This document shows, one piece after another, positions 10,485 to 39,077 of a stretch of 39,078 nt of DNA. The position numbers were made by a program, and so were the translations under genes. The first letter of the stretch is position 1. Every line of letters starts with the position of its first letter. Below the pieces are notes generated by a model that worked only from the letters and a program-made list of their open reading frames with translations, had not been told where the DNA came from and searched no databases. The stretch comes from a virus (lineage: Duplodnaviria > Caudoviricetes), in IMG/VR virus record IMGVR_UViG_3300020044_009858, positions 1 through 39,078 of that record; one strand, 5' to 3'.

Positions 10485-10673
10485 ATGGAAGCTCAACGCA
10501 TTAGTATTCGTTTAAATGAACAAGAACTAGCCCAATTCCGCTCATTGTCCGGAACTACGGACGCAGAGCGGTTTCGCATACTTCTTAAAGTTTATGCTGC
10601 CGCCAAAGTGGAAGTTGATTTGGACGATACAATTAAAAGCGATAAGCGGATTGGTCGGAAGCGGAATTCATAA
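10485..10673 (+). CDS. ribbon-helix-helix (CopG/Arc-like) transcriptional regulator
   Basis: QRISIRL beta-strand, NEQELAQFRSL helix, G-T-T-D-AERFRILL helix. Confidence 0.65.
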   Translation: MEAQRISIRLNEQELAQFRSLSGTTDAERFRILLKVYAAAKVEVDLDDTIKSDKRIGRKRNS

Positions 10674-10956
10674 GTTTTCGTATTTTCCGGCTCCACATTG
10701 GGTCTTGAGCGTACCGCTTGCCTAAAAAGTCTAAATAGTCTTTTTTTGCACCTGCTTTATTCCAATCCCTAAATGCGTGTTCTATGGTGTTTTTACACCA
10801 TTGTCTGGCTTCTGGGTAGGTCAACCTACGCTTGGAATGTATTCCGTAAGGAAAGCGCGTATTTTGACCACCTTCTTGAGTGTAAATGGCATTTAGCAGC
10901 TTGGTTTCGTATTGCGGTGTAAAGAACAATGCGGCAGCTAACACAATGTTTGTCAT
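10633..10956 (-). CDS. small lysozyme-fold muralytic enzyme, putative endolysin
   Basis: AIYTQEGG (candidate catalytic Glu), YGI, FLGKRYAQDPMW; hydrophobic N-terminus. Confidence 0.55.
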   Translation of the reverse strand: MTNIVLAAALFFTPQYETKLLNAIYTQEGGQNTRFPYGIHSKRRLTYPEARQWCKNTIEHAFRDWNKAGAKKDYLDFLGKRYAQDPMWSRKIRKLMNSASDQSAYRF

Positions 10957-13900
10957 TTTTTAATAATGTATCCTTCCGGCGGTTTAATTTCGGGCAACGC
11001 AGCTTGATTTGGAGACGGCGGGTGAAGCTCATTATACACAATTGCAAACCTTTGCCAGATGTACTGTCTCAATTCTTTTGCTTGAGCGTAAGTGCTTTTT
11101 TGTTGGTCTGTAAGGCTGTTTACAAATTGGGCTTCGTATTTGCCAGCGTATTTGTGAGTAGGAGCAAGAGATATTCTCATTCCGTTAATATTTCTGCCTT
11201 CAGATTCAAGCTTTTGAATTTCTTTTTTAGACCCTTCGTAGTCGCCAGCAATTAACAATGCGCGAAGGTTTGAATATCCTTGATGATTAACAAGGTATGC
11301 CTTGGAGCCGTATTTGTTTTGCAATTCCTTGTTATTGCTTTTGTCAGCCCATTTCGCTTCGTTTTGATAAGTTTCTTCAACGGCAGAAGCTCCTTTGTGC
11401 ATTGGAACAGACAAAGCAAACTGGTTTCCACGAAGAGCAAACGGAAGGAATATTGAACCAGCAGACACAACCCTGTCTGGAATACTGTAAAATTTAACTT
11501 TGTTGTCTAAAACCCACGATGCAGGATAAATTCCCAATTCGGTTGTAGGCGAAACGCCAGAAATTTGTTTGGTAATTTCCTGAATTGGTTGCGCAAGCTT
11601 TGGAACAAACGCCAACGGGTCAGTTGCCCAACGAATAATTTCAGAAGCTCGTTTTCCAAGATTAATGTAATGCCTTGTTAAATCATCTTTATGGTGCCAC
11701 GGCATCATTCTTAAAGCCGGAGTAATATCAATGCTGAATTTTTCACCGGACTGATTTTCCCACACAAAAGGTTTGTCGCCTTTTGATTTATCACCAAACG
11801 TTTGATACAAAGCCCATTGGGTAAATATTGAACCAATTGCCAAAGCGGAAAGCTCGCTAGCCCAAAACCTCATTCTTAACTGATTTCCTTTCCAGCCTTC
11901 GTATCTTGGGGCGTATCCTTTAACCACTTTAGACGCCATCCAGCTTGTTGCGTCTGAAATAAATGGAACGCTTTTAAGAGTTGAAATTGTCCAATCCGGA
12001 GCAAGTAAAAGTCTGCCCATTAGTTTTTGAACAGACGGACTCGCCCAAAACATAGCCTGTTTTTCTTGTCCGCCAAATGCGTCATTAATGTAAGAAGCGG
12101 CAATTTCCTTGTCTATTCCTTTGGAAACCAAATCCATCCAAGCAATCATTTTGTAGGCATCGTGCGTATTACGCCACAACGCTTTTTGCCTCCATTGATA
12201 AAGGTCAATTGCCTTTCCAACGCCTTTAATGTCTTTAACCCGCCTTAAAATGTTGTCTAAAGCAGATTGAGCGCCCATTTCAAACTGGTCTGCGTCCCTG
12301 TGGTCAGAAAGCTTTAAGCCGGAATAAACAGCCTCTTTTACAACGTCTTCGTTTTCCAACGCTTGCACACCAACTTTTCTAGTGCTTTGAAAAAGTTTTC
12401 TTTCTCCAGTAATAGGGTCAAACTCATTGAGCAACACCAATCCCCGAAGCGGATTATGTAATTGCAACATAGCGCCAACAGAAGCAAGGCGAAGCGTAAA
12501 ATCGTGAAATAAAGAACCAGCAAAAACACCAAGCCTAGTAGCAGAATTAAGCGCATCATAAAATCTTCCAGCCATGCTTGAAGTAGGTCTTTCTAAAATT
12601 TGCTTTAAAGCAGGAGCAACGTCAGGATGAACCATTGCACCAGTTCTCCACAACATTAATTTTGAACGGCTTCCGGTAGCCCAAGTAATCTGAATTAACG
12701 GGTGATTCATTAACACCCAATCTTCAGGAGCCAAGTCTTTTGGCAAAACAACAGCGTTTCCGTCTTTGCCTTTAAGGTTTTTGAGTTCTCCCAATACTTT
12801 TCTGGCAGCGGCAACGCGCCAGTTCATAGAAGTATAAATGGCATACAATTCAGACGGGTCTTGGCTAATGGGTTTTAACCCCAATTCAACAGCTTCCCTT
12901 AATGTGGGAAGTTTGCGTTCTTTTGCGCTTGAACTTTTTTTAGCCCAACTTGTAATTGCAGACGCGATTTTTCTAGAGCTTCCTTGATAAAAATGAGGAA
13001 GATAATCTTTAAGGAATTTAAGATATTCCGCTTCTCCATAATTGCGCAGCAATATGTTTATGTCTTGGCGTGTTTCTTCAGTGCTTTTGCGATAATCAAT
13101 AGCAAGTTCTCGCATTTCTGGCGTCATTCTTGCCACAACATCCGCAATTGTGTCTCCTGCAATTTCTAGGTTTCCAATGCCTTCAATGAACGCGCCAACG
13201 TCATTTCGTCTTGCAACATCTGGAACAAGCTTTTGCCATTTATCTGCTTTAATTTGAGCAGCTTGTTTGTTTGCGTCCGCCATTCTTACGGCTTCAACAA
13301 CAATTCCTTGAGCTTTTATGGCTAAATCTAATTCGTAATAAGTGTCGGCAGGTTTTCCGCGAGCCGGAAGCTTTCCGGTCATTCCCGCTGGTTTGCCAGT
13401 TGGAGCAGAAATTCGCTTGGCTGCAACTGGAGTAACATTTTCAACGTTTAATTCATCTAAAAGTATTTTAACATCTGGATGTTTAATAACTTCTTTTTCA
13501 AAAGCTTCTGTGAATTTTGGAGCCATTGACCTAGCCAATTCGGGGTCGTGAATGTAAAGACACATAAAATCGGCAAATAGCTCTTTGCCTTGTCTTCTGT
13601 ATTCAATAAACCGCTTGCTGCCAGCAATTTTGCCACGAAGCATTTCTGAAATAGGAATTATTTCGCCACGAACAATACTTTCCGGAAGATTAAACTTTTT
13701 GCCAAGAGCAGTGTATGGTTTGTCTTTTATAAACGGAAACATCGTGTTTTCAACGGCATGACCAAATTCATGTGCCATTGTGCGTTGATTTCTAATGTTT
13801 CCCATATGAATTTTGTCTTCAGCACCGCCCCAGAAAAAGGCTCCCAATACCCCGCCTTTCATGGCTTTATACCTAGCCAACGCACCAATAACACGGGTGG

Positions 13901-16900
13901 CTTCCAACAATTGACCAGTAAACGTTTTTCCGCGCTTTCTTACATTGGGCGGCAATCCAGAATCAGGCTCCGGTATTGGATGCACCTTTGAAGCTTCAAA
14001 ATCAGCAACGGCGTTTGCTGCGCTTTTGCCTTCTTGTTCAACATCCAAAACATCCATTTCAGCCATTTCTTTGGCAGTTTTGGGTTTTTTGGCTAAATCT
14101 GCTTTTGTAACGTGCGTTGAAACTTCTGGGTCATCTTTACCCCTAAACGGCATTACAATGTATTTTCCGTTTTTCCCAACAAGTATAATAGGAGCAAGTC
14201 CGGTTGTTGGCTTTCTTCCTTGGTCAAATTTTGATTTAATTGAAAACGTTTCGTCTCCAATTAAACGCAACGCATTTATGCCATCTAACAAATATTGAGG
14301 GTCAATATTGGCAATAATTTTAGCGCCTTTTTGCAATGAGCTTCCGTATTCGCCTATGTCTTCAGAAACAGCAGAAATTCCAATTGTTCCGTCTGGGTTG
14401 CGGTGAAGAGTAATTGATTTTTCTTTTTCAGTAACAATTTCTTGAGCTTGTCTAACAGATTGAAAAAGCTTTTCAGAATCAACGGAATCAACAATTGTGT
14501 CAATTTCGTTGTCCTTTGGAACTATTTGTTTCCAATTCGGATAAGCGCTTCCCGATTTAACTTCATTTCCTTTTTCGTCTATTAAAATTGGGTTTTTGCT
14601 TGTTCCGCCAATTTCGGCATTAACAATTAAAAGTCTTCTACCATCAGTAGAAACTGTAACCTCACCATCGCTAAATATGTGAACAATGTCTCCACGGCTT
14701 GTGTCTTCGCTAATTGAAATACTTGAAGCTTTTAAAATGTTTTCTTTTTTTAAGCTGCCCAATACGGCTGGCTTTGTTTGCGTAACTTTTACGTTTCCAG
14801 AAGTTTTAACGGCAATTCCAGAAGTTGGAAAACCAACAGCATGGTCATCTCTAAACTGTTTTAAAGTTTCTTTTGAATTAATTACAGAATAAACGCCATC
14901 TTTTGGTATTTTAATTGTTACAATAGGAGATTGATAAACAATTTGAGATTTAAGAATACCGGAAGAATCTTTGTCGCCTAACAGCAATCTTACTTTTACA
15001 TCGTCCGGTTTGTTTTTGTAAAACTCGCCAAAATCATATTTGCTTTCAATTTCGTCCAAAATTTTCTTTCTTCTGGCTTCAAATTCAGAACGTGTTTCTT
15101 TGCCGTTCATTTTGCTTGCTTCTTCAACAAGCAAAATGTCTTTGTCGGCTTGTACTTCTGGGCGCTTTTCTGGGGCTTCTTTAATGGCTTGGTCAACAGC
15201 ATCCAGCAAAAACTTCTTTTGTTCTTTGGCTTGTTTTGGGCTAAATTCTGTTTTTGTTGTGTCAATTTTAGCAGTTGTTTTTACATTTTCTGCGTTAAGA
15301 ACAATTTCTGTTTGACCTTTAACAGTTTCAATTTTTGGCAATTCAATTGGTTTTGCAACAATTTCTTCCGGCTTAACGGCTTCAACTGGTTTTTCTGTAG
15401 CAAATTTAACCACTTGAGAATGACCAAAAGACTCTACAAGACCTTTAACGCTTTCTCCGCGCTCGTTTACGTCCCCGTAACCAATTTTAACAATAGCGCC
15501 GTCATAGCCTTTTGATTTAAGGTATTCTTGGAGTTTAATTGTAGACGGGGCAATAAGCTCCGGATTTTTGTACCAAGTTTCCCCACGGCTATCTAATGCC
15601 GGAGTGTTGGCGTCTTTAAGCAACTGCCTCCATTTGGCATCGGAATCAATAACAATGGGGTTTGAAAGCTCTACATCGTAAGCCGTAACCTTTCCGTATA
15701 TTTGAGCGTCTTCTCGCGTTTCAGCGTAATAATCGCCCTTGCCAAGAATTGGCACAGCCCTGCCTTCTGCAACGGCTTCTGCTCCATAAATGTCTTCCGG
15801 CTTTGCCCCGCGACCCTGATAAAGCTTCTTTTTAAATACAGGCGGTTTGGCTTTAGTTGGAGGAAAATAAGTTTTAACAACATTTACGGATTTATTATTA
15901 AAAGAAAGATAATAATCTCCAGACGTAATTCCTTTTTCTCCGCCTTTAAGTATTAATCCATCATATCCTTGAGATTCAAGATACGATTTAATTTTATCGC
16001 CTCTTATTGGTTTTTTAACTGGGTCGTTTTGGTCTTCTCTAAATTTTTCAAAAAATTCACGCGCTTCATTTTCTGAATAAAATATTTTTGGATTGTTAAT
16101 TATTATTTCTCCGTAAAGAATGGCTCCCTCTCCGTTTTCTATGCTTTTTCCAAAAAAAACGGCGTCTTCAATTTTTGAAGACCACCAAGTTCCCATAGAA
16201 TCAGCGGATGCACCAATTTCTCTAGTTTTTCCGGCTGGAGAAATATTTAAAACAAGACCTTCAAATTTTCCTTTTCTCGCTATTTCAGCAGACCCGTGAT
16301 AAACTTTAATTTTTTTACCAGCGGCTTGATTTACGTCTTTTGGTGCGTCTATTGCTTTAGAAACATCAATTGGCACTGGCTCAACCGGAACAACTGGCTC
16401 CGTTGCTTTAGTTTTTGGGTTTCTTTTAATTAAAGAAATGCCATCTGATTCAAAACCAAGTTTTTCGTACCATTTGCGAAGCTCTGCTTTATTAAGGTTT
16501 TTTTGACCTTTTTTAATAAAAATTTTTATTGGAGCAATTTCTGCCGTTAATTTAGTTCCGACAGCATCGGCAACTTCAACAACATCTTTCATCATTTTTG
16601 AAGCTCCTCCCTTTCCTCTTGCTTTAGGGTCTGTAACTATTGCTTCAATATGAAAGCCGTCTTTTTTGTTTTGTAAATATCTGTGTACATCGCCTTTTTG
16701 TTCGCCAAATACATCAGTAGAAAAAGCTAGCTTTGTTTTTCCGTCTGGAGAAATAAGGGTTATGTAACTTGAATTTCCTATAACAAGTTTGTTTTGGGAA
16801 TTAATTTTATGCCCAGCGTATGTATATCCGCGATTGAGCATCCCTTCTATCCAATTATCTTGAACATCAATGCCAGATTTAAGTTCAGCAGGAATAATTG

Positions 16901-19190
16901 GCTCCGGTTTAACGGAAACAATTGATTCTGGCTTAATTGGCTCGGCGGGTTTTGGCTCTTCTGGCAAAACAGCGGGTTTTGCTTTTGTAATGTTTTTTCT
17001 TAAAACAATTACAGGAGCATTGTCTTCATTTATTATCTGAATTTCGTCTCCAGATATGGATACTATTTTTCCTTTATGAACAAGCCCTTTAATTTGATGA
17101 GATTTTGCTTCTATTGTGTCTCCAATTTTTATTGAAGAAAATTCTTGTTTTGGTTTTTCAATTTGTGTTTTTAATTTTCTTTTTTCAATTTCTTCGTTTA
17201 TTAATTCTAAAACATGGTCTTGGTGCTTTCCATATCCATAAATGTGGTTTTTAATAATTTCAAGGTCTGAATCTGGACGCTTGCTTAAATTAAGTTTAAA
17301 ATCAACTACAGTTTTTTTATTTAACCTTTCTTGTTTTTGTTTTTCAGGCTTTGATATTCTGGCGTCATCCAATTTAAGCCCAAAATCTTTAACAGCTTCG
17401 TTTACAGCTTCTTCCCAAGTGTCGTGTGTTCTGTGGCTAGAAGCGCCATCTTTGTCAAAAATAGTATATCTCCACTTTCCTTGTTCTGTGGGTTCAGGAG
17501 ATACAACAATGTAAGCTTTACGTTTCTCGTCTAATTTTTCTGGTGTGCCTTGAAACGTGACTTCCCCGTGTTTTTTTTTAAATTCGTCTATGCTTTCTTT
17601 TCTTTTTTGGATGCGCTGTCTGGCTTCTTCAAGAATTTGCCTAGCCCTATTGGTCAAATCTTCGCGTTCTTTTAAAAGGTCTTCACTGTGCAGCTTTCCT
17701 TTTCCTTCTCTTCCGGACGCAACCCAAGCTTCTTCTCTGTTTAAATGTTCCCCAATAACACCTCCTTTGGCGTCTACAGGCACAAAAACATGATTGGAAT
17801 CATCGTCATGCTGCGCTTCAATCATCCTAGCGCTTTCTTTGTCACCATTTGCTTCAGCCAAAGCAACTTGGTTGTCCATGATTTCCTTATGGGTATCCCC
17901 GCCAATCACGGGTTGACCATTTATAAGCAAAGCAGGACGCAGCTTAATTTTGGCTGGTTTTTCGGCTGGTTTTGCAAAAACGGAGGTTGGCTCCGGTAAA
18001 GCCGCCGAAACACCTTTTGGCGGTTGAAAACCCTGTCCCAAGGGCATTTTATTCTTAAGAGTAGCCTGAAGGTCAGCCAACATATCCGGCGTAACTTTAA
18101 CCCGTTCAGAAGGCTCAACTTTAACAAAATCGGCTGGAGCGCCAATTTGAGGCATTGCAGAAGCTTCCCAAGTAGCTAGGCGCGGAGACAATGCGGTTTC
18201 GGCTCTTAAATCTCCGGTTTCGTCTCTAAATTTACCCTGATTAACCTGTTGGTTAAGCCTAGACATTAATTTGTCTGTGGTAAATTGATGGCGTTTACCG
18301 AAAATTCCAAGCACTGTCATTGCAGCAACATTACCAATTGCGTCTATCCAAGCATCTTTTTGCTGCTCTTTTGGCAATTTAAAGATTTCATGGGCTTGGT
18401 CTGCCGTAATTGCAGCCGCAACAGTTCCCGCACCACCCGCTTTGTTTATAACATTAAGGGCGGCGTCAGACCCAATTCCGGCTTTTGCAGCTAGGTTTTC
18501 AGCAATAGCGCCGGAATACTTGCCAATAAAAGGAATAATACCAGCAACAACGGCTTGTTTTGGACTAAATCCTTCAGGCGTTAAACCAAAAGACATTGCT
18601 CCCAAAAATGGGTCTGCTGAATAAACAGCCATTTCAGGAGCGGTTTTCATTATGCCAGCAATGCCAGATTCAACCATTCTAGCTGCAACTGGCATATTCT
18701 TCATTTCCTGCTCGTAAGGAGGCTGTTCATCTTTAAAAACGGCTTTAACGTTTCTAAATTTGCTTTCGCCAGTTTCAATAGGGAATGTTCCTATGTCGGC
18801 TAACAATGCAGGAATTGCAGCCCCTTCGCGCTCCAAGCCTTTTCCAAGCTCTGTAAGTACGCCAGTTTGTGGGTCTGCAATTGCGGCAAGAAAATCCGAA
18901 GTGTTACCAAGTGCGCTTTTGTCTTTTAAAGTATCATTTGCCCGATAAATAGCAGCTTCAAACGGGTCTAATTTGACTTTTGAAACATCTGGAGCGGAAA
19001 CTTCTTTAATTTTTCTTAAATCGCCAGCAACGCCAGATTCTGGAATTTCTTTGATTTTACGAAGGTCGCCTTCAGGTTTGCCAAAAGCTTCGTCTAATAG
19101 ACCGCTTTTGGGTTTGCCACCAAAAGCTTCAGACAAAAGCCCTCCAGCTTTAGGCGTTTCACCAAAAGCTTCTTCAAGTAATCCAGCCAT
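10953..19190 (-). CDS. giant polyvalent internal virion/ejection protein (SH3-like, GNAT, two ART-like, beta-clamp-like, zincin peptidase, helical C-terminal region)
   Basis: 2745 aa, last large gene after the tail/ejection genes; RGKGGAS...WYEKLGF; VYHGS and two GYDG motifs; STDGRRL...YPNWKQIVP...YIVMPFR; HEFGH...ELFA. Confidence 0.85.
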   Translation of the reverse strand: MAGLLEEAFGETPKAGGLLSEAFGGKPKSGLLDEAFGKPEGDLRKIKEIPESGVAGDLRKIKEVSAPDVSKVKLDPFEAAIYRANDTLKDKSALGNTSDFLAAIADPQTGVLTELGKGLEREGAAIPALLADIGTFPIETGESKFRNVKAVFKDEQPPYEQEMKNMPVAARMVESGIAGIMKTAPEMAVYSADPFLGAMSFGLTPEGFSPKQAVVAGIIPFIGKYSGAIAENLAAKAGIGSDAALNVINKAGGAGTVAAAITADQAHEIFKLPKEQQKDAWIDAIGNVAAMTVLGIFGKRHQFTTDKLMSRLNQQVNQGKFRDETGDLRAETALSPRLATWEASAMPQIGAPADFVKVEPSERVKVTPDMLADLQATLKNKMPLGQGFQPPKGVSAALPEPTSVFAKPAEKPAKIKLRPALLINGQPVIGGDTHKEIMDNQVALAEANGDKESARMIEAQHDDDSNHVFVPVDAKGGVIGEHLNREEAWVASGREGKGKLHSEDLLKEREDLTNRARQILEEARQRIQKRKESIDEFKKKHGEVTFQGTPEKLDEKRKAYIVVSPEPTEQGKWRYTIFDKDGASSHRTHDTWEEAVNEAVKDFGLKLDDARISKPEKQKQERLNKKTVVDFKLNLSKRPDSDLEIIKNHIYGYGKHQDHVLELINEEIEKRKLKTQIEKPKQEFSSIKIGDTIEAKSHQIKGLVHKGKIVSISGDEIQIINEDNAPVIVLRKNITKAKPAVLPEEPKPAEPIKPESIVSVKPEPIIPAELKSGIDVQDNWIEGMLNRGYTYAGHKINSQNKLVIGNSSYITLISPDGKTKLAFSTDVFGEQKGDVHRYLQNKKDGFHIEAIVTDPKARGKGGASKMMKDVVEVADAVGTKLTAEIAPIKIFIKKGQKNLNKAELRKWYEKLGFESDGISLIKRNPKTKATEPVVPVEPVPIDVSKAIDAPKDVNQAAGKKIKVYHGSAEIARKGKFEGLVLNISPAGKTREIGASADSMGTWWSSKIEDAVFFGKSIENGEGAILYGEIIINNPKIFYSENEAREFFEKFREDQNDPVKKPIRGDKIKSYLESQGYDGLILKGGEKGITSGDYYLSFNNKSVNVVKTYFPPTKAKPPVFKKKLYQGRGAKPEDIYGAEAVAEGRAVPILGKGDYYAETREDAQIYGKVTAYDVELSNPIVIDSDAKWRQLLKDANTPALDSRGETWYKNPELIAPSTIKLQEYLKSKGYDGAIVKIGYGDVNERGESVKGLVESFGHSQVVKFATEKPVEAVKPEEIVAKPIELPKIETVKGQTEIVLNAENVKTTAKIDTTKTEFSPKQAKEQKKFLLDAVDQAIKEAPEKRPEVQADKDILLVEEASKMNGKETRSEFEARRKKILDEIESKYDFGEFYKNKPDDVKVRLLLGDKDSSGILKSQIVYQSPIVTIKIPKDGVYSVINSKETLKQFRDDHAVGFPTSGIAVKTSGNVKVTQTKPAVLGSLKKENILKASSISISEDTSRGDIVHIFSDGEVTVSTDGRRLLIVNAEIGGTSKNPILIDEKGNEVKSGSAYPNWKQIVPKDNEIDTIVDSVDSEKLFQSVRQAQEIVTEKEKSITLHRNPDGTIGISAVSEDIGEYGSSLQKGAKIIANIDPQYLLDGINALRLIGDETFSIKSKFDQGRKPTTGLAPIILVGKNGKYIVMPFRGKDDPEVSTHVTKADLAKKPKTAKEMAEMDVLDVEQEGKSAANAVADFEASKVHPIPEPDSGLPPNVRKRGKTFTGQLLEATRVIGALARYKAMKGGVLGAFFWGGAEDKIHMGNIRNQRTMAHEFGHAVENTMFPFIKDKPYTALGKKFNLPESIVRGEIIPISEMLRGKIAGSKRFIEYRRQGKELFADFMCLYIHDPELARSMAPKFTEAFEKEVIKHPDVKILLDELNVENVTPVAAKRISAPTGKPAGMTGKLPARGKPADTYYELDLAIKAQGIVVEAVRMADANKQAAQIKADKWQKLVPDVARRNDVGAFIEGIGNLEIAGDTIADVVARMTPEMRELAIDYRKSTEETRQDINILLRNYGEAEYLKFLKDYLPHFYQGSSRKIASAITSWAKKSSSAKERKLPTLREAVELGLKPISQDPSELYAIYTSMNWRVAAARKVLGELKNLKGKDGNAVVLPKDLAPEDWVLMNHPLIQITWATGSRSKLMLWRTGAMVHPDVAPALKQILERPTSSMAGRFYDALNSATRLGVFAGSLFHDFTLRLASVGAMLQLHNPLRGLVLLNEFDPITGERKLFQSTRKVGVQALENEDVVKEAVYSGLKLSDHRDADQFEMGAQSALDNILRRVKDIKGVGKAIDLYQWRQKALWRNTHDAYKMIAWMDLVSKGIDKEIAASYINDAFGGQEKQAMFWASPSVQKLMGRLLLAPDWTISTLKSVPFISDATSWMASKVVKGYAPRYEGWKGNQLRMRFWASELSALAIGSIFTQWALYQTFGDKSKGDKPFVWENQSGEKFSIDITPALRMMPWHHKDDLTRHYINLGKRASEIIRWATDPLAFVPKLAQPIQEITKQISGVSPTTELGIYPASWVLDNKVKFYSIPDRVVSAGSIFLPFALRGNQFALSVPMHKGASAVEETYQNEAKWADKSNNKELQNKYGSKAYLVNHQGYSNLRALLIAGDYEGSKKEIQKLESEGRNINGMRISLAPTHKYAGKYEAQFVNSLTDQQKSTYAQAKELRQYIWQRFAIVYNELHPPSPNQAALPEIKPPEGYIIKK
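19004..19190 (-). repeat. N-terminal peptide repeats GLLxEAFG x3 and GDLRKIKE x2
   Basis: visible in the translation; CCAAAAGCTTC recurs at 19081, 19119 and 19162. Confidence 0.85.
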
Positions 19191-22901: not shown

Positions 22902-23360
22902 TTATTGGTTTCCTTTCATAATTCTTGGCAATATTTTGTCCGACAAACAAACAAGTTTATTGTTTCTATATGTAAATATTGAGACTGGTTTGTTTTTAAA
23001 AAGCTTTTTTACAACAATTGGGTGAATTTTTTTAAAACAATCCATTGTTCCAAAAATGTCCCCGTAAAAAATTGAATCCCCAGTGTTTTTTGAAATCCAA
23101 GAAAATTGAGGCTTATTGTTTTCGTATTTTTCTTCAATGTGTTCTTTCCAATCAACCCAATAAAATATAGCCATTTTAATTTTATTGTCTTCTATATCTA
23201 AAATTAATTTGTCAGTTAACAAACAAAATAACACATAATTGTAAGCTTGTTCCGGCGTAAATTGAGCAAACGACGATTTGCCAATATTTGCCATGCAAAA
23301 ATCCACAATGTCCCAAACATGGTCTGCAACAGTGTATTTTTGTTTTAATGCAGTATTCAT
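22902..23360 (-). CDS. possible GNAT/HlyC-like acyltransferase-fold protein
   Basis: IFYWVDW...E...FSW...TGDSIFYGDIFG resembles the HlyC W..G..LW..D pattern; position equivalent to T7 gp13. Confidence 0.4.
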   Translation of the reverse strand: MNTALKQKYTVADHVWDIVDFCMANIGKSSFAQFTPEQAYNYVLFCLLTDKLILDIEDNKIKMAIFYWVDWKEHIEEKYENNKPQFSWISKNTGDSIFYGDIFGTMDCFKKIHPIVVKKLFKNKPVSIFTYRNNKLVCLSDKILPRIMKGNQ

Positions 23361-34482: not shown

Positions 34483-35772
34483 TTAAGAAGGTTCAAGAAC
34501 AATTTCAGGGTCTGGAATTTCTAAATCAGTAAATTTAATTCCTTGTTCTTGTTCAGATTCAATTTCTCGTATTACATCTGCAAGCGCTTCTACATCTGCA
34601 TTAGCTCCATCCGGAAGCTCGTCCGACAATTTATTAATCTTTTCAAATACTTCTTTGGGAGTATTTCCAGTAGCTCTTAACCAGCCAATTGTTGAGCTAT
34701 CGTCTACTGGTGGATACCACAATTGCCCTTTGTTTTCGCAACATTGTTGAGAAAGCAGCTCTTTTTTAATTTCATCACTTATAACGCACGTTTGCCATAC
34801 GTTTGTATCGCCTTTAAGCGTAACCATACATTCAGCAGAAAATTTAAAACCATAATCAATCTCAACAAATTCACCCCTAGCGCCATGATAAATAACTTCT
34901 GCCGTATTTTTGGCTGCTAAAAATGTATTTGTTGACGGAAGACCACCACGAGTTGTTGCATCAATAAAAAAGTTTTCTTTTTTAGTAACGCGAACCTCCA
35001 TACTCCATTGGTTTCTATAACCAACTTCATTTAAATATGGGCTAAAAGCGTTCATTATTGGCATTAATTGCTCCGGCATTTCAGATTTATGCGTAACGGC
35101 AGCAAAATAAGCAGCATCTTTGCGTTCAATGCCATGAAGCATCATGGTAGGAAATTGACCATCAACACAATAAGTGTCAGCACCAATTTCTAAATCTGTT
35201 TCAATTTTAGAAAAACAAATAAAATTAATACATTCTTTAATTCCACCAAATTTAACAGCCCAAGCATCAAGATTTTGCCAATCTTCATTCCAGCTTCTCC
35301 AATGGCTTGTTTCCCACGAACCGCGCCATTTGCTTACTTTAATCCAAATATCTTTTTTATTTTTAAGAAAAGCAGAAAGGTTTGAAACGCCTTGAATAAT
35401 GTCGTATTTAGGCACATCAAGGTTTAATTCGTGTAATTTTTTGAGAAAATGCACTCTGTCTTGTTCAAGAAGCATCCCTTTATGGCTTCCCCATACTGGT
35501 TTGTTTTGAGAGCGCAACTCATCTTGCATCCCGCAATGACGAATATCAGGAAAAACAAAACAATCTATTTGATTTTTATAGCCCCAAAGGTCATCTACGC
35601 AATGTATGTCAGGCATCCCGTCTCCAATAATAGCCTCATCAATGCGGTCTTTTCTATCAATAGGAGTAGCGTAAAAAACTCTAGCACCAGACATTGCAAG
35701 CCTTCTTGCAAGCCCAACAAACAAGCCAAAATGGTCTAATACACCGAATGTTTTGCTAGATAAATCGTTCAC
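34483..35772 (-). CDS. PurD (GARS)-like ATP-grasp ligase
   Basis: PVWGS...LEQDR, VPKY, IWIK, EIG.D, YRNQWSMEV, FIDATTRGGLPS parallel PurD IFGP..LEGSK, VIKA, VIEFNCRFGDPE. Confidence 0.7.
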   Translation of the reverse strand: MNDLSSKTFGVLDHFGLFVGLARRLAMSGARVFYATPIDRKDRIDEAIIGDGMPDIHCVDDLWGYKNQIDCFVFPDIRHCGMQDELRSQNKPVWGSHKGMLLEQDRVHFLKKLHELNLDVPKYDIIQGVSNLSAFLKNKKDIWIKVSKWRGSWETSHWRSWNEDWQNLDAWAVKFGGIKECINFICFSKIETDLEIGADTYCVDGQFPTMMLHGIERKDAAYFAAVTHKSEMPEQLMPIMNAFSPYLNEVGYRNQWSMEVRVTKKENFFIDATTRGGLPSTNTFLAAKNTAEVIYHGARGEFVEIDYGFKFSAECMVTLKGDTNVWQTCVISDEIKKELLSQQCCENKGQLWYPPVDDSSTIGWLRATGNTPKEVFEKINKLSDELPDGANADVEALADVIREIESEQEQGIKFTDLEIPDPEIVLEPS

Positions 35773-36143: not shown

Positions 36144-36271
36144 TTTACAACAGCAGGTTTAATTACCTTGTTGCTTTTTTTAACCGCTTTTTTAATTATT
36201 CTGCGATTTTTTTTTAATAATTGCAACGCAATGCTGGTTGTTAATTTTGAATATATTTCTTTAAAAGTCAT
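36140..36271 (-). CDS. 43-aa basic peptide
   Basis: read manually: MTFKEIYSKL...KKAVKKSNKVIKPAVVK; overlaps the portal stop and the next start. Confidence 0.45.
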   Translation of the reverse strand: MTFKEIYSKLTTSIALQLLKKNRRIIKKAVKKSNKVIKPAVVK

Positions 36272-38232
36272 TATAACATCCTCATTTCGCTTTGCGGCGG
36301 AGATTGCGGCGGAGTCAATTGCGCTTGTGATTGCCCTTGCATTTGTTGTTGCGGCATTCCTTGTTGTTGCATTGGCTGTTGTTCTAGCTGTTTAAGCTCC
36401 ATAACAATTTGTTTGTAAGCAACTGGCTGCAATTGTTTGAGAATTTGCAAATGTTGAACAAGATGTTCTTGAATTCTTTGTTTTGCAAGCGGGTCAACTG
36501 TTTTGTTTTTTGCTCCTTGTGCCTGAAGAAACTGAACAATTGTTTTAATTCTTGTAATGTGGTCTTCTTCTGGTTTAACAGGAGCCGGAAAATGAGTAAC
36601 AATCATTGATGTTATTTGATAATTCTCATCTTCAGCTTCACTTGCAGCTTTTTGCTGGCTTGGAATTAGCAAACGCTTAACAAGTCTGGCATCATCCGCA
36701 GACAAAATGTCTTTAACAAGCTCATCTTGATTAACGTTTGGAGCGCCACGCAATGCTTGAAACCGCTGCACTGCGCGTTGCATTTTTTGACCCCTATCCC
36801 AATCGTCTAAATTGCCAGCAGGAGTAATTAAATATTCATCATGCAATGCTTGTTCTGGCAATGTTTTTAAATCTTCTGCAACAAAGTAAGTAAGATTGTT
36901 GCGTTTGTATTGCAAACACAATGCCCAATCAAACCTTAACAATTTTGACAAACAATCTTTAAATATGTAGCCAAAATGATTTTGTCCTACCTGCGACAGC
37001 GATGCTGCGACACTAATTTCTCTGGCAGTTCTTTTTTCGCTTCTGCCTTGATTGGCTTTTTCAATTCCCAAATCAGGCATTTGAGCAGCAATTTCTGCCT
37101 CACCACGGGCAAAATTAATTTCTGAATCAAAGCTAAAAGCTGGTTGACCAAATTGAACTGGCTTAATGTTATTGGGAATATATTCGCCGGGTACTTGTCT
37201 ATAATTTGATGGGTTTTGAATAGGCGTATCACTTGTAAACATTGGCGTGTTAAAATAAGTGATAGCATCTGCTTTAGCGTTCCAAAGCTTGCAAGCGTAA
37301 ATCTCTTTATCTGCAATTTTTTCTGCTACGCCGCGAGGTGAATACCAACCTTCATCTTTAATTTCAGCAACAAAACTAAAAAACGGAGCGGTAACTTTGC
37401 CTCTAACTTTGTAAGGAACACCAAAAGGTTTGCGCACTTCTACATCCATTGCAACTGGGCAATAGGTATAAACCATAATGCCGCCCATTGTACGAACATA
37501 ATGTTCCCAAAGAATAATTGTGTCTGCACTTGCGCTATGTGTAAACCCTTCACGATATTCTTTATCAATTTGAATTTCGTCAAAATCCCTACCACGTTGA
37601 GTTTTTAATCTGTTTAAGGCATCTTTGCCACCGCGCATCAAAGATATTTTGTAATTAGTATCAGACTCGTTTTCTTCTGTGTTAAATCTATTAAAATAAC
37701 GGCGGTCTCTTTTAAATTTTTGAACGCTAATTTGACGCACATGAACCCATTCATCTGCATCATCAAAATCATTGGCTGTGTCAGCCATTAACAAATAAAG
37801 CGGGTCAACGTTTTCGTGAATTATTTTGTAATCATCAAACGGGTCAACGTAAGCTTTAATAATTCCCCTGCCGCGAAGCCACATTGTGTCTACCATTGAT
37901 TCAAGAATTTTAAAAAAATTACTTCTTTCCCTTAATTCAAAAGAAAAAAAGTCGGCAGAACTGTCACTGGTTTCTTGAAGTTGTTGGCGCATTGCAACGA
38001 AGCTAGCAAGCCTTGGAGCTGATGTTACCTGCGCCAACGTGAATGGTTTGAGTTTTGAAATTGCTTCGTCAACCAGCGCAAGATGAAGGTCGGCAGCACT
38101 GGGAAAAGGCTTGTTCCTACGGCGAAGCCCGTCATGCCGCATAACATAATAACGGCGCTGTTTGTTTTCCCAATCTTGGCGGTCTTGTAATATTTGCCAA
38201 GCTCTACCGAATAAATCTTTTGGTGTTTCCAT
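36271..38232 (-). CDS. portal protein (P22-like)
   Basis: 653 aa after TerL; GRGIIK, WYSPRGVAE, RTAREI, Gln-rich tail. Confidence 0.88.
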   Translation of the reverse strand: METPKDLFGRAWQILQDRQDWENKQRRYYVMRHDGLRRRNKPFPSAADLHLALVDEAISKLKPFTLAQVTSAPRLASFVAMRQQLQETSDSSADFFSFELRERSNFFKILESMVDTMWLRGRGIIKAYVDPFDDYKIIHENVDPLYLLMADTANDFDDADEWVHVRQISVQKFKRDRRYFNRFNTEENESDTNYKISLMRGGKDALNRLKTQRGRDFDEIQIDKEYREGFTHSASADTIILWEHYVRTMGGIMVYTYCPVAMDVEVRKPFGVPYKVRGKVTAPFFSFVAEIKDEGWYSPRGVAEKIADKEIYACKLWNAKADAITYFNTPMFTSDTPIQNPSNYRQVPGEYIPNNIKPVQFGQPAFSFDSEINFARGEAEIAAQMPDLGIEKANQGRSEKRTAREISVAASLSQVGQNHFGYIFKDCLSKLLRFDWALCLQYKRNNLTYFVAEDLKTLPEQALHDEYLITPAGNLDDWDRGQKMQRAVQRFQALRGAPNVNQDELVKDILSADDARLVKRLLIPSQQKAASEAEDENYQITSMIVTHFPAPVKPEEDHITRIKTIVQFLQAQGAKNKTVDPLAKQRIQEHLVQHLQILKQLQPVAYKQIVMELKQLEQQPMQQQGMPQQQMQGQSQAQLTPPQSPPQSEMRML

Positions 38233-38243
38233 AATTTAAATTG

Positions 38244-39077
38244 TCATAAACAAGCTTCCGCTGGCAATACACAAGTTTTATCCATTTCTTCTTCTGCCCG
38301 TTCTAGCCAGCCTCTAGTATCTTCTCTAGAATTACCACCAATCATGCTAGAACTAAAGCCTTTAGTGAAAGGCATCATTGCCCGTAACACTGCGTCAGCT
38401 TCGTCAGGGCTATCAAGACCTCTGCTTCTCATGTCTTCTTTGCTTTCTAATTGAAGCTTTCCGGAGCTATTACGTTTGCTTTGCCTTGATAAAACCTGAC
38501 CCCGAAAATCATCATCATCCGGAAGGATAATATCACGACTAATTATTTTTCCTATAGATTCATGCCATGTTTCGCTAATAAGATTGTTGTAATGCTCTGG
38601 TTCATTAGCGGCTCTTGACCCGCCATGAAACTCCGTACAATTCATTCCCATTTCGCGCAACCTATGCACAAGTCCTATGCCTAAACCATCTGCGTCACAT
38701 TCAACTTCTTCGGCTTGTAATCCGTATTGGCGTTGCAATTTTTTAAATATTGTCATGCACTCACCAACAGTTGCCATTGTGTCACGCTCATTCCATTTCT
38801 TTTCAATCCATACTTTGTTGCCAACCCTAATAGCAAAAACGTTTTTATCCCGTCCTGCTGCAAAATCAATAAAAGCGTGCCTGTCGTTGTGTCCAAGTAT
38901 CCATTCTGGCGGATTAATCTTGCAAGCTTCATATTCACCAAGCGACAGCATTGCATTGGCTACACGTTTTGCAAACTCACCAAACACGTTAGATTGAATA
39001 AATGGAGATTCTTTTCCACGCCATTTAGCAATCTTACGTTCTACAGATTCTGGAGTAATCCAATAACCATCTGTAGT
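38244..39077 (-). CDS. terL: terminase large subunit, C-terminal nuclease domain (5' truncated by the window)
   Basis: VFGEF, IDFAAGRD, DADGLG, LESKEDMRSRGLDSPDEADA; frame open to the window end. Confidence 0.92.
   Translation of the reverse strand, partial: TTDGYWITPESVERKIAKWRGKESPFIQSNVFGEFAKRVANAMLSLGEYEACKINPPEWILGHNDRHAFIDFAAGRDKNVFAIRVGNKVWIEKKWNERDTMATVGECMTIFKKLQRQYGLQAEEVECDADGLGIGLVHRLREMGMNCTEFHGGSRAANEPEHYNNLISETWHESIGKIISRDIILPDDDDFRGQVLSRQSKRNSSGKLQLESKEDMRSRGLDSPDEADAVLRAMMPFTKGFSSSMIGGNSREDTRGWLERAEEEMDKTCVLPAEACL

Follow-up and report, generated by a model that had tools for sequence, protein, structure and literature searches.

A giant phage protein of 2745 residues carries, embedded in its chain, a miniature beta clamp that keeps the partner-docking pocket of DnaN and has lost much of what builds the ring. 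This mini-clamp spans residues 1482-1684 of the ORF (14139..14747, minus strand) and is recognized both by sequence profiles and by its predicted fold. A tentative reading, which falls a little short of probable, is that it works as a cut-down, ringless receptor for host clamp motifs, likely injected and acting locally at the entering DNA. The window analyzed here is the whole linear virus record of 39,078 nt, whose completeness is estimated at 64%.

A beta clamp fold inside a giant phage protein

Five motifs typical of the DNA polymerase III beta clamp had originally been noted in this region, following one another in their DnaN order. All five are present in the ORF at 10953-19190 (minus strand), at residues 1492-1500, 1514-1520, 1550-1558, 1629-1638 and 1677-1683, running from nt 14717 down to 14142. 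Searched alone, the segment matches PF02768 with 25.7 bits (E 1.1e-5), just below the curated cut-off of 27. It also matches PHROG 6615 (E 1.1e-8), and its matches to beta clamps in the PDB have an E of about 0.02. When a family profile of 40 sequences is used instead, beta clamps make up 49 of the 50 PDB matches at E<=0.01, the best reaching 1.2e-14. A profile of 145 relatives, comprising the best 150 clusters minus five that were partial or non-matching, aligns to E. coli DnaN 133-366 with 60.9 bits.

Structural modeling points in the same direction. AlphaFold, supplied with a 40-row alignment, gives a pLDDT of 90.3 and a pTM of 0.78; the single sequence without an alignment reaches a pLDDT of only 34. 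Foldseek searches with the model return beta clamps throughout among the PDB matches listed, and the top viral fold match is the 217-aa gp53 of phage Sam46. In the VIA comparison with the PDB, the top five chains score Z 19.3-19.4 with an rmsd of 2.3-2.6 Å over 180-189 residues, and their aligned ranges start at DnaN 131-139 and run to the end (131-366). VIA Z scores to PCNA are 11-13.7, compared with 19.4 to DnaN. Together, the Z of 19.4 to beta clamps and the profile matches argue that the likeness is not due to chance. The model of residues 1482-1684 thus has the clamp-domain fold of DnaN (pLDDT 90, rmsd about 2.5 Å), and the DnaN origin put forward in the original prediction holds.

Loss of domain I, half of domain II and the dimer face

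The mini-clamp consists of two unequal parts. Residues 1482-1549 (14544..14747, minus strand), delimited by an alignment gap, motif spacing and the model, form the pocket half of DnaN domain II and contain the first helix, the R152 loop, the TDGRRL hairpin and one more strand. Residues 1550-1684 (14139..14543, minus strand) comprise, by alignment and model, the interdomain loop (YPNW) and a complete domain III that retains the pocket strand IVMPFR. The modeled partial domain II comprises a long helix, a short helix and four strands, and domain III has two helices and eight strands; a normal clamp domain is described as two helices with two four-stranded sheets (PMC11139829). The segment was originally predicted to represent domains II-III, which is right for domain III but only half right for domain II, leaving 1.5 domains.

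In the alignment, about 32 residues of domain II, corresponding to E. coli DnaN 203-234, are deleted. The missing piece is presumably the second helix plus three strands facing domain I, and it is taken here to include the edge strand for pairing with the neighboring protomer. The spacing from T172 to P242 is 36 residues in this protein, has a median of 39 in the 145 relatives and measures 70 in E. coli. It is at most 50 in 139 of the 145 relatives and 67-79 in 31 of 34 host DnaNs (those with a measurable similar pattern). Domain I is absent, as predicted: E. coli domain I, compared with 135 upstream stretches, gave a best E of only 0.24, and no upstream domain I completes a clamp.

The dimer face has changed as well. 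Here Q1581 stands for R269, E1584 for I272, I1585 for L273 and S1617 for E304, and the family keeps the host-like residue at these four positions in 3%, 4%, 16% and 3% of members, respectively. R269 is replaced by Q in 87% of the family and A302 by Y or F in 75%. According to PMC12269063, R269 is required for beta dimer stability. The mini-clamp accordingly has neither the three domains per protomer nor the conserved dimer-interface residues (R269, I272/L273, E304) of DnaN, and it also differs from PCNA and gp45, which have two complete clamp domains per protomer, in that its first domain is partial.

These losses support the ring-incompetence that had been deduced from the missing domain I, although that argument alone is too weak: PCNA and gp45 are two-domain clamps as well and nevertheless form closed, trimeric rings (PMC4858162). 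The mini-clamp should be ring-incompetent because domain II is half-deleted and the dimer-interface residues are lost. Ring closure of the PCNA type would be open to a protomer with two complete domains; a 1.5-domain protomer should not achieve it. The mini-clamp is therefore predicted to be a monomer that is unable to form a ring.

Conservation of the partner-docking pocket

The pocket itself is intact, in agreement with the idea that this segment could still bind clamp partners. Across 18 pocket positions taken from PMC11139829, covering subsites I and II, 10 residues are identical to E. coli, six are conservative and two are host-type, namely R for H175 and Q for R246, which match the consensus of 34 DnaNs drawn mostly from Verrucomicrobiota that may not be this phage's host. 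Family-wide conservation was compared at 64 positions, each of them shared by 80% or more of these 34 host DnaNs, a comparison that is biased because 29 of the 34 were chosen, from one phylum, as top scorers against the family profile. The 145 relatives keep the host-consensus residue in 75.1% of cases at 15 pocket positions and in 31.9% at the 49 others (p=3.2e-6, indicative only, as the rows are related). Removing five deletion-edge columns changes the latter value to 33.6% (p=8e-6).

Individual residues follow this trend. R152 is found in 95% of the family and R175 in 83%, and surface residues P242, P346 and M362 are retained across members only 26-41% identical to the 2745-aa protein. Subsite II drifts more than subsite I, with M364 at 52%, R365 at 67%, R176 at 59% and V344 variable. 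On these sequence comparisons, selection has retained the pocket and discarded the ring.

Partner binding was also modeled, using the N-domain of an Opitutales delta subunit as a stand-in partner. The predicted complex with residues 1470-1686 scores 0.42, against 0.00 for the best of three controls, in a range (0.60 or less) that counts as weak, since 18 of the 157 solved complexes reached this mark, as did both of the two passing mismatches (of 215). The runs share at least 83% of their contacts, and the partner has a pLDDT of at least 84. Because a like complex, 1JQL, has already been solved, the score may reflect that known structure.

Genomic setting and other domains of the giant protein

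Nearly all genes of the record lie on the minus strand, and the giant polyvalent protein (10953..19190, minus strand) is the product of the last large gene of the virion operon. The same gene run holds the major head gene (phrog_1357) and matches to virion, tail and structural PHROGs, and two of its mid-sized ORFs resemble ejection proteins when read by eye. Beyond the giant ORF in gene order come exonucleases and DnaB; portal and terminase were assigned to 36271-38987 by eye, without a database match. In a Lacunisphaera prophage, the C-terminal part of a frame that, by its coordinates, appears to be the giant homologue matches phrog_6651, 'internal virion protein', at E 1.7e-17. Judged from sequence and gene order, the 2745-aa product is likely an internal (ejection) protein.

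Several other genes of the record were noted. A small acyltransferase-like gene at 22902-23360, with a weak match to PF02794 (E 0.003), lies amid tail and ejection genes, and a 107-aa gene directly after the giant protein (10633-10956), whose match to a glucosaminidase is weak (E 0.026), possibly encodes a lysozyme-like protein. A 429-aa ORF at 34483-35772 has no Pfam or PHROG match and, read by eye, looks like an ATP-grasp enzyme; at two related loci, L131 and L006, its strong homologues (E 1e-56 or lower) adjoin the giant gene. Positions 1-2900 have a GC content of 54-62%, against about 40% elsewhere, and contain a DUF932 gene, so that the first 3 kb may possibly be a recently acquired segment.

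Upstream of the mini-clamp, the giant chain contains a GNAT acetyltransferase core at residues 842-914 (16449..16667, minus strand; PF13508, E 1.2e-6 and 29.3 bits when cut out) and an ART-PolyVal-like domain (15891..16322, minus strand; PF18760, E 3.5e-4, below the cut-off). A second ART-like stretch (15396..15836, minus strand) was recognized from motif likeness by eye and has no Pfam ART match. The original prediction raised the possibility of a functional tie between the clamp segment and these enzymes, and a conserved link did not emerge: searches with the three regions against 135 relatives gave 0, 0 and 2 matches. A Pfam search of 46 whole relatives, which has low sensitivity, found LPD38 in eight, PBECR3 in one, ART-PolyVal in one and GNAT in none. 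The LPD38, PBECR3 and ART-PolyVal matches place the carriers among the polyvalent proteins, and a 'large polyvalent' UniProt protein is among the fold matches. Downstream, a zincin metallopeptidase motif, HEFGH (13758..13772, minus strand), follows the mini-clamp by about 120 residues, and 40 of the 135 relatives have an HExxH within 400 aa downstream. The zincin could release the mini-clamp module; a processing role for the zincin domain has been proposed in section 33 of PMC5512222.

Two short modules precede the mini-clamp in most relatives. The hairpin-helix m2 (residues 1421-1456; 14823..14930, minus strand) lies just upstream and occurs in 134 of 145 relatives, and the helix m1 (residues 1319-1341; 15168..15236, minus strand), separated from m2 by a variable insert, occurs in 111 of 145. 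Neither has a match in Pfam or the Atlas, and their interpretation as a remnant of domain I was rejected on an hhalign probability of 0.45%. Among 72 fetched frames with m1/m2, 41 lack the mini-clamp, some of them being duplicates, which indicates that many giant proteins manage without it. The m1/m2 pair, which bears a PGDG motif, recurs widely among giant phage proteins, whether or not they contain a mini-clamp (L008, L009, L115, L120, L123 and others).

Nine frames, picked by eye, contain a further-reduced, clamp-like stretch of about 150 aa with eroded motifs, which has an hhalign probability of 60% (E 8.5e-5), against 0.4% for a reversed control. These stretches (L007, L126, L130, L134, L139, L156, L160, L167 and L171) lie about 15-200 aa after m1/m2 and retain a hairpin resembling TDG/SNG as well as a final strand resembling VMP. 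Their pattern suggests stepwise shrinking around the pocket.

The giant proteins themselves were considered as pocket ligands. QxxLF motifs are not enriched in 136 carrier proteins (35 observed, 47 expected), so the pocket ligand is probably not the protein's own chain, and this candidate was rejected. A separate count of hexameric clamp-motif-like strings in the same 136 carriers shows depletion, with 1 observed and 14.6 expected.

Distribution of embedded and free-standing mini-clamps

Sequence searches reveal that the fusion of a clamp to a giant protein recurs among relatives. HMMER over 1.84 billion representatives found 207 clusters (50% identity) at E<=0.001, 103 of them at <=1e-10, and 140 of the best 150 have a chain length of at least 1000 aa. 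The embedded mini-clamps sit in chains of 1000-5700 aa. One relative, P0145, apparently has two copies, at residues 934-1138 and 1368-1613 (48 and 139 bits). Other searches returned less: a word-index homologue search, which considered 946 candidates, recovered nothing beyond the 2745-aa protein itself, the segment had no tblastn match at E<=0.01 in 50,697 annotated phages, a viral scan with one relative as query yielded no confirmed locus, and a genome scan with alignment A2 confirmed 0 of 20 stretches. Locus L001, a viral ATPase-like gene that is unrelated, was rejected as a spurious match.

In species genomes, the mini-clamp was found in five of 94 pattern matches (80 with full flanks), from Lacunisphaera, Opitutus, Kiritimatiellia, Planctomycetota and Clostridia (a 4-kb contig), the last four on short contigs of uncertain binning. 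The Lacunisphaera copy belongs to an integrated prophage that is flanked on both sides by housekeeping genes and has matches to portal, head and internal virion proteins. Among 401 Verrucomicrobiota genomes searched, only one, already known (G001), has a giant-protein match; the other 57 matching at E<=1e-20 have frames of 364-695 aa, and the 29 that were fetched are ordinary DnaN.

The carriers also bear on replication strategy. Reliance on the host replisome, originally read from the window's gene content, has little footing in a 64%-complete contig alone but holds in relatives: Pol A, Pol B and Pol III alpha occur in none of 19 carrier virus records, six of them at least 90% complete and one (L150) only a partial match. 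DnaB occurs in four of the 19.

The same deletion is found in free-standing genes. It is common to Sam46 gp53, BCJA1c gp19, Staphylococcus SPbeta-like gp017 and LfeInf gp039, with a spacing of 33-34. These Firmicutes phage genes encode about 215 aa, keep the pocket motifs, score 48-54 bits against the family profile and probably correspond to PHROG 6615. Sam46 gp53 is matched by 13 phage records, one of which, Perkons, has a full clamp, and Atlas clusters 193-213 aa long contain 53-227 members each. The Sam46 paper (PMC8190038) treats gp53 as an ordinary processivity factor. In a quick unrooted tree of 57 rows, limited by long branches, skewed composition and thin host sampling, embedded copies fall on one side of a branch (96), and free copies group with one full-length phage DnaN (99). 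This topology hints that embedded and free-standing mini-clamps arose by two separate truncations.

The neighborhoods of the free copies vary. Those of Sam46 and BCJA1c lie within recombination/replication modules, the LfeInf copy adjoins a terminal repeat, and the Staphylococcus SPbeta-like copy (L188:4971-5651) is two genes from the anti-restriction gene ArdA. In the Psychrobacillus phage Perkons, the full-length clamp ORF14 (L190:4614-5708) lies within three genes of ArdA in a small-gene cluster, a setting like that of the Staphylococcus copy. A pairing of two free-standing mini-clamps with ArdA was thus rejected, as only one qualifies and Perkons ORF14 is full length. The ArdA neighbors of one mini-clamp and one full clamp hint at a counter-defense use of clamp copies.

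Proposed role and alternative explanations

The proposed mechanism starts from a clamp fold whose pocket is kept and whose domain I and residues 203-234 are missing, with a changed dimer face. Given the synteny and the PHROG match in a relative, the mini-clamp would be packaged and ejected within the giant protein. Its pocket may then bind host QxxLF/SLF-type motifs, to which the weak delta model lends some weight. What these comparisons suggest, taken together, is an injected, monomeric protein that docks host clamp motifs, and such binding is judged quite probable. Beta in its monomeric form has an affinity for delta about 50-fold higher than that of the dimer and is unable to tether Pol III for processive synthesis (PMC11139829). 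This preference makes the clamp loader and Pol III holoenzyme the first candidate partners, followed by ligase, Pol I, MutS/L and RecB. In this way, the replication and repair enzymes of the host could be held at the entering genome to seal it, protect it and start its copying. Because monomeric beta gives no processivity, recruitment would need another part of the chain to hold DNA, and none was identified. Injected proteins are present in few copies, which, together with host-replisome dependence, favors local capture at the entering DNA; global sequestration by few virion copies seems unlikely.

The same data would fit a decoy equally well, in which the pocket absorbs harmful clients such as the RecB nuclease, mismatch repair, clamp-docking toxins or defense proteins, or, in a variant, stalls host replication through the captured clamp loader. 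RecB binds the clamp pocket, and loss of its motif impairs DNA degradation by RecBCD (bioRxiv 10.1101/2025.08.20.671105). The SPbeta-like copy near ArdA and the LfeInf copy beside a terminal repeat are compatible with such a role, and free-standing genes could yield enough copies for titrating partners. However, an injected protein arrives in few copies, the carriers depend on the polymerase and loader of their host, the copies in Sam46 and BCJA1c sit in recombination/replication modules, and the second ArdA neighbor, Perkons ORF14, is a full-length clamp; the decoy as a whole, its variant included, is considered rather unlikely. Few copies would suffice for catalysis if the pocket served as bait, delivering clients to the ART, GNAT or peptidase domains for covalent modification. 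GNAT and ART-like domains do lie 200-700 residues upstream here, and 40 of 135 relatives have a zincin motif in the 400 aa after the mini-clamp, but the free-standing copies have no enzyme and the GNAT and ART regions are rarely shared (0, 0 and 2 of 135; Pfam ART-PolyVal in 1 and GNAT in 0 of 46), leaving this explanation improbable.

Equally improbable is a pocket reassigned to a phage or virion partner, or a domain that persists as a structural spacer or decaying relic. The nine hand-picked frames with an eroded version of about 150 aa, the many giant proteins that have lost the mini-clamp and the additional structural roles of the T-D-G and M-P residues would agree with this, but own-chain motifs are not in excess, and R152, R175, surface P242, P346 and M362 are kept at 26-41% identity in a pattern that mirrors the host pocket. 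A working clamp, whether as a PCNA-like trimer once proteolysis has freed it or as a poison subunit that pairs with domain I of host DnaN, could draw on the complete domain III, on the trimerization of two-domain clamps (PMC4858162) and on the naming of a free-standing copy as a processivity factor (PMC8190038). Half of domain II is gone, R269, I272 and E304 are lost and the embedded copies sit in chains of 1000-5700 aa, so this possibility appears very improbable. Local capture by a ringless receptor stays the preferred reading.

A wider interpretation, somewhat more tentative still, is that the beta clamp was trimmed by phages, at least twice, to a monomeric pocket of 1.5 domains, yielding an 'open-clamp mimic' that captures clients early in infection. 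One such reduction would have taken place inside the injected giant proteins of PVC-group phages and the other as a free gene in Firmicutes phages. The mimic would target clamp clients of the host, such as its clamp loader or RecB, during the first minutes of infection. If true, mini-clamps would be a widespread class of phage effector that copies a hub rather than attacking it. They are common (207 clusters plus the free-standing genes), small (about 200 aa) and easily purified, and they open to experiment the question of which clamp client helps or threatens a phage when its DNA enters the cell. They also offer a minimal soluble pocket for studies of clamp-binding motifs, and their existence suggests that 'processivity factor' is the wrong name for some of the phage genes annotated that way.

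Comparison with known clamp and phage systems

A truncated clamp within phage virion proteins was not described in the literature searched, which was largely open-access. A close framework is that of the phage polyvalent proteins (Iyer et al. 2017, PMC5512222), giant multidomain chains with GNAT, ART-like and zincin domains like those of the 2745-aa protein. With 2745 aa, the present protein is likewise a very large chain of disparate domains encoded alongside head and virion genes, as PHROG matches show, with portal and terminase assigned by eye only. The main text of PMC5512222 mentions no clamp, DnaN or DNA polymerase III, although its lists of 131 domains and of LPD1-40 may include the domain under a code.

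Compared with DnaN (PF00712/PF02767/PF02768; 1MMI, 7RZM), the mini-clamp shares the fold of 131-366, both subsites, the interdomain loop and the C-terminal MP motif. It differs in lacking domain I, residues 203-234 and the dimer face, and in being fused within a giant protein of a virion operon. By domain count and interface it stands outside the DnaN family, but it likely functions as the pocket of a monomeric DnaN would. Its best analogue in function is the monomeric beta mutant I272A/L273A bound to delta(1-140) in 1JQL (PMC11139829), a ringless protomer whose pocket works. That protein is engineered and has three domains, whereas the mini-clamp is natural, phage-encoded and reduced to 1.5. 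Free-standing proteins of the Sam46 gp53 type share the deletion and pocket motifs, yet they are separate genes annotated as ordinary clamps, and the tree places them apart from the embedded copies.

Other phage proteins are also known to act on the host clamp system. Gp168 of phage Twort (7EVP), as reported in PMC11139829, and the clamp-binding activators of phage Mu, as reported in PMC12867686, both bind the host clamp. The mini-clamp instead imitates the clamp and would bind its partners. A natural ringless pocket of this kind would reverse the strategy of Gp168 and the Mu activators, imitating the hub and taking its partners.
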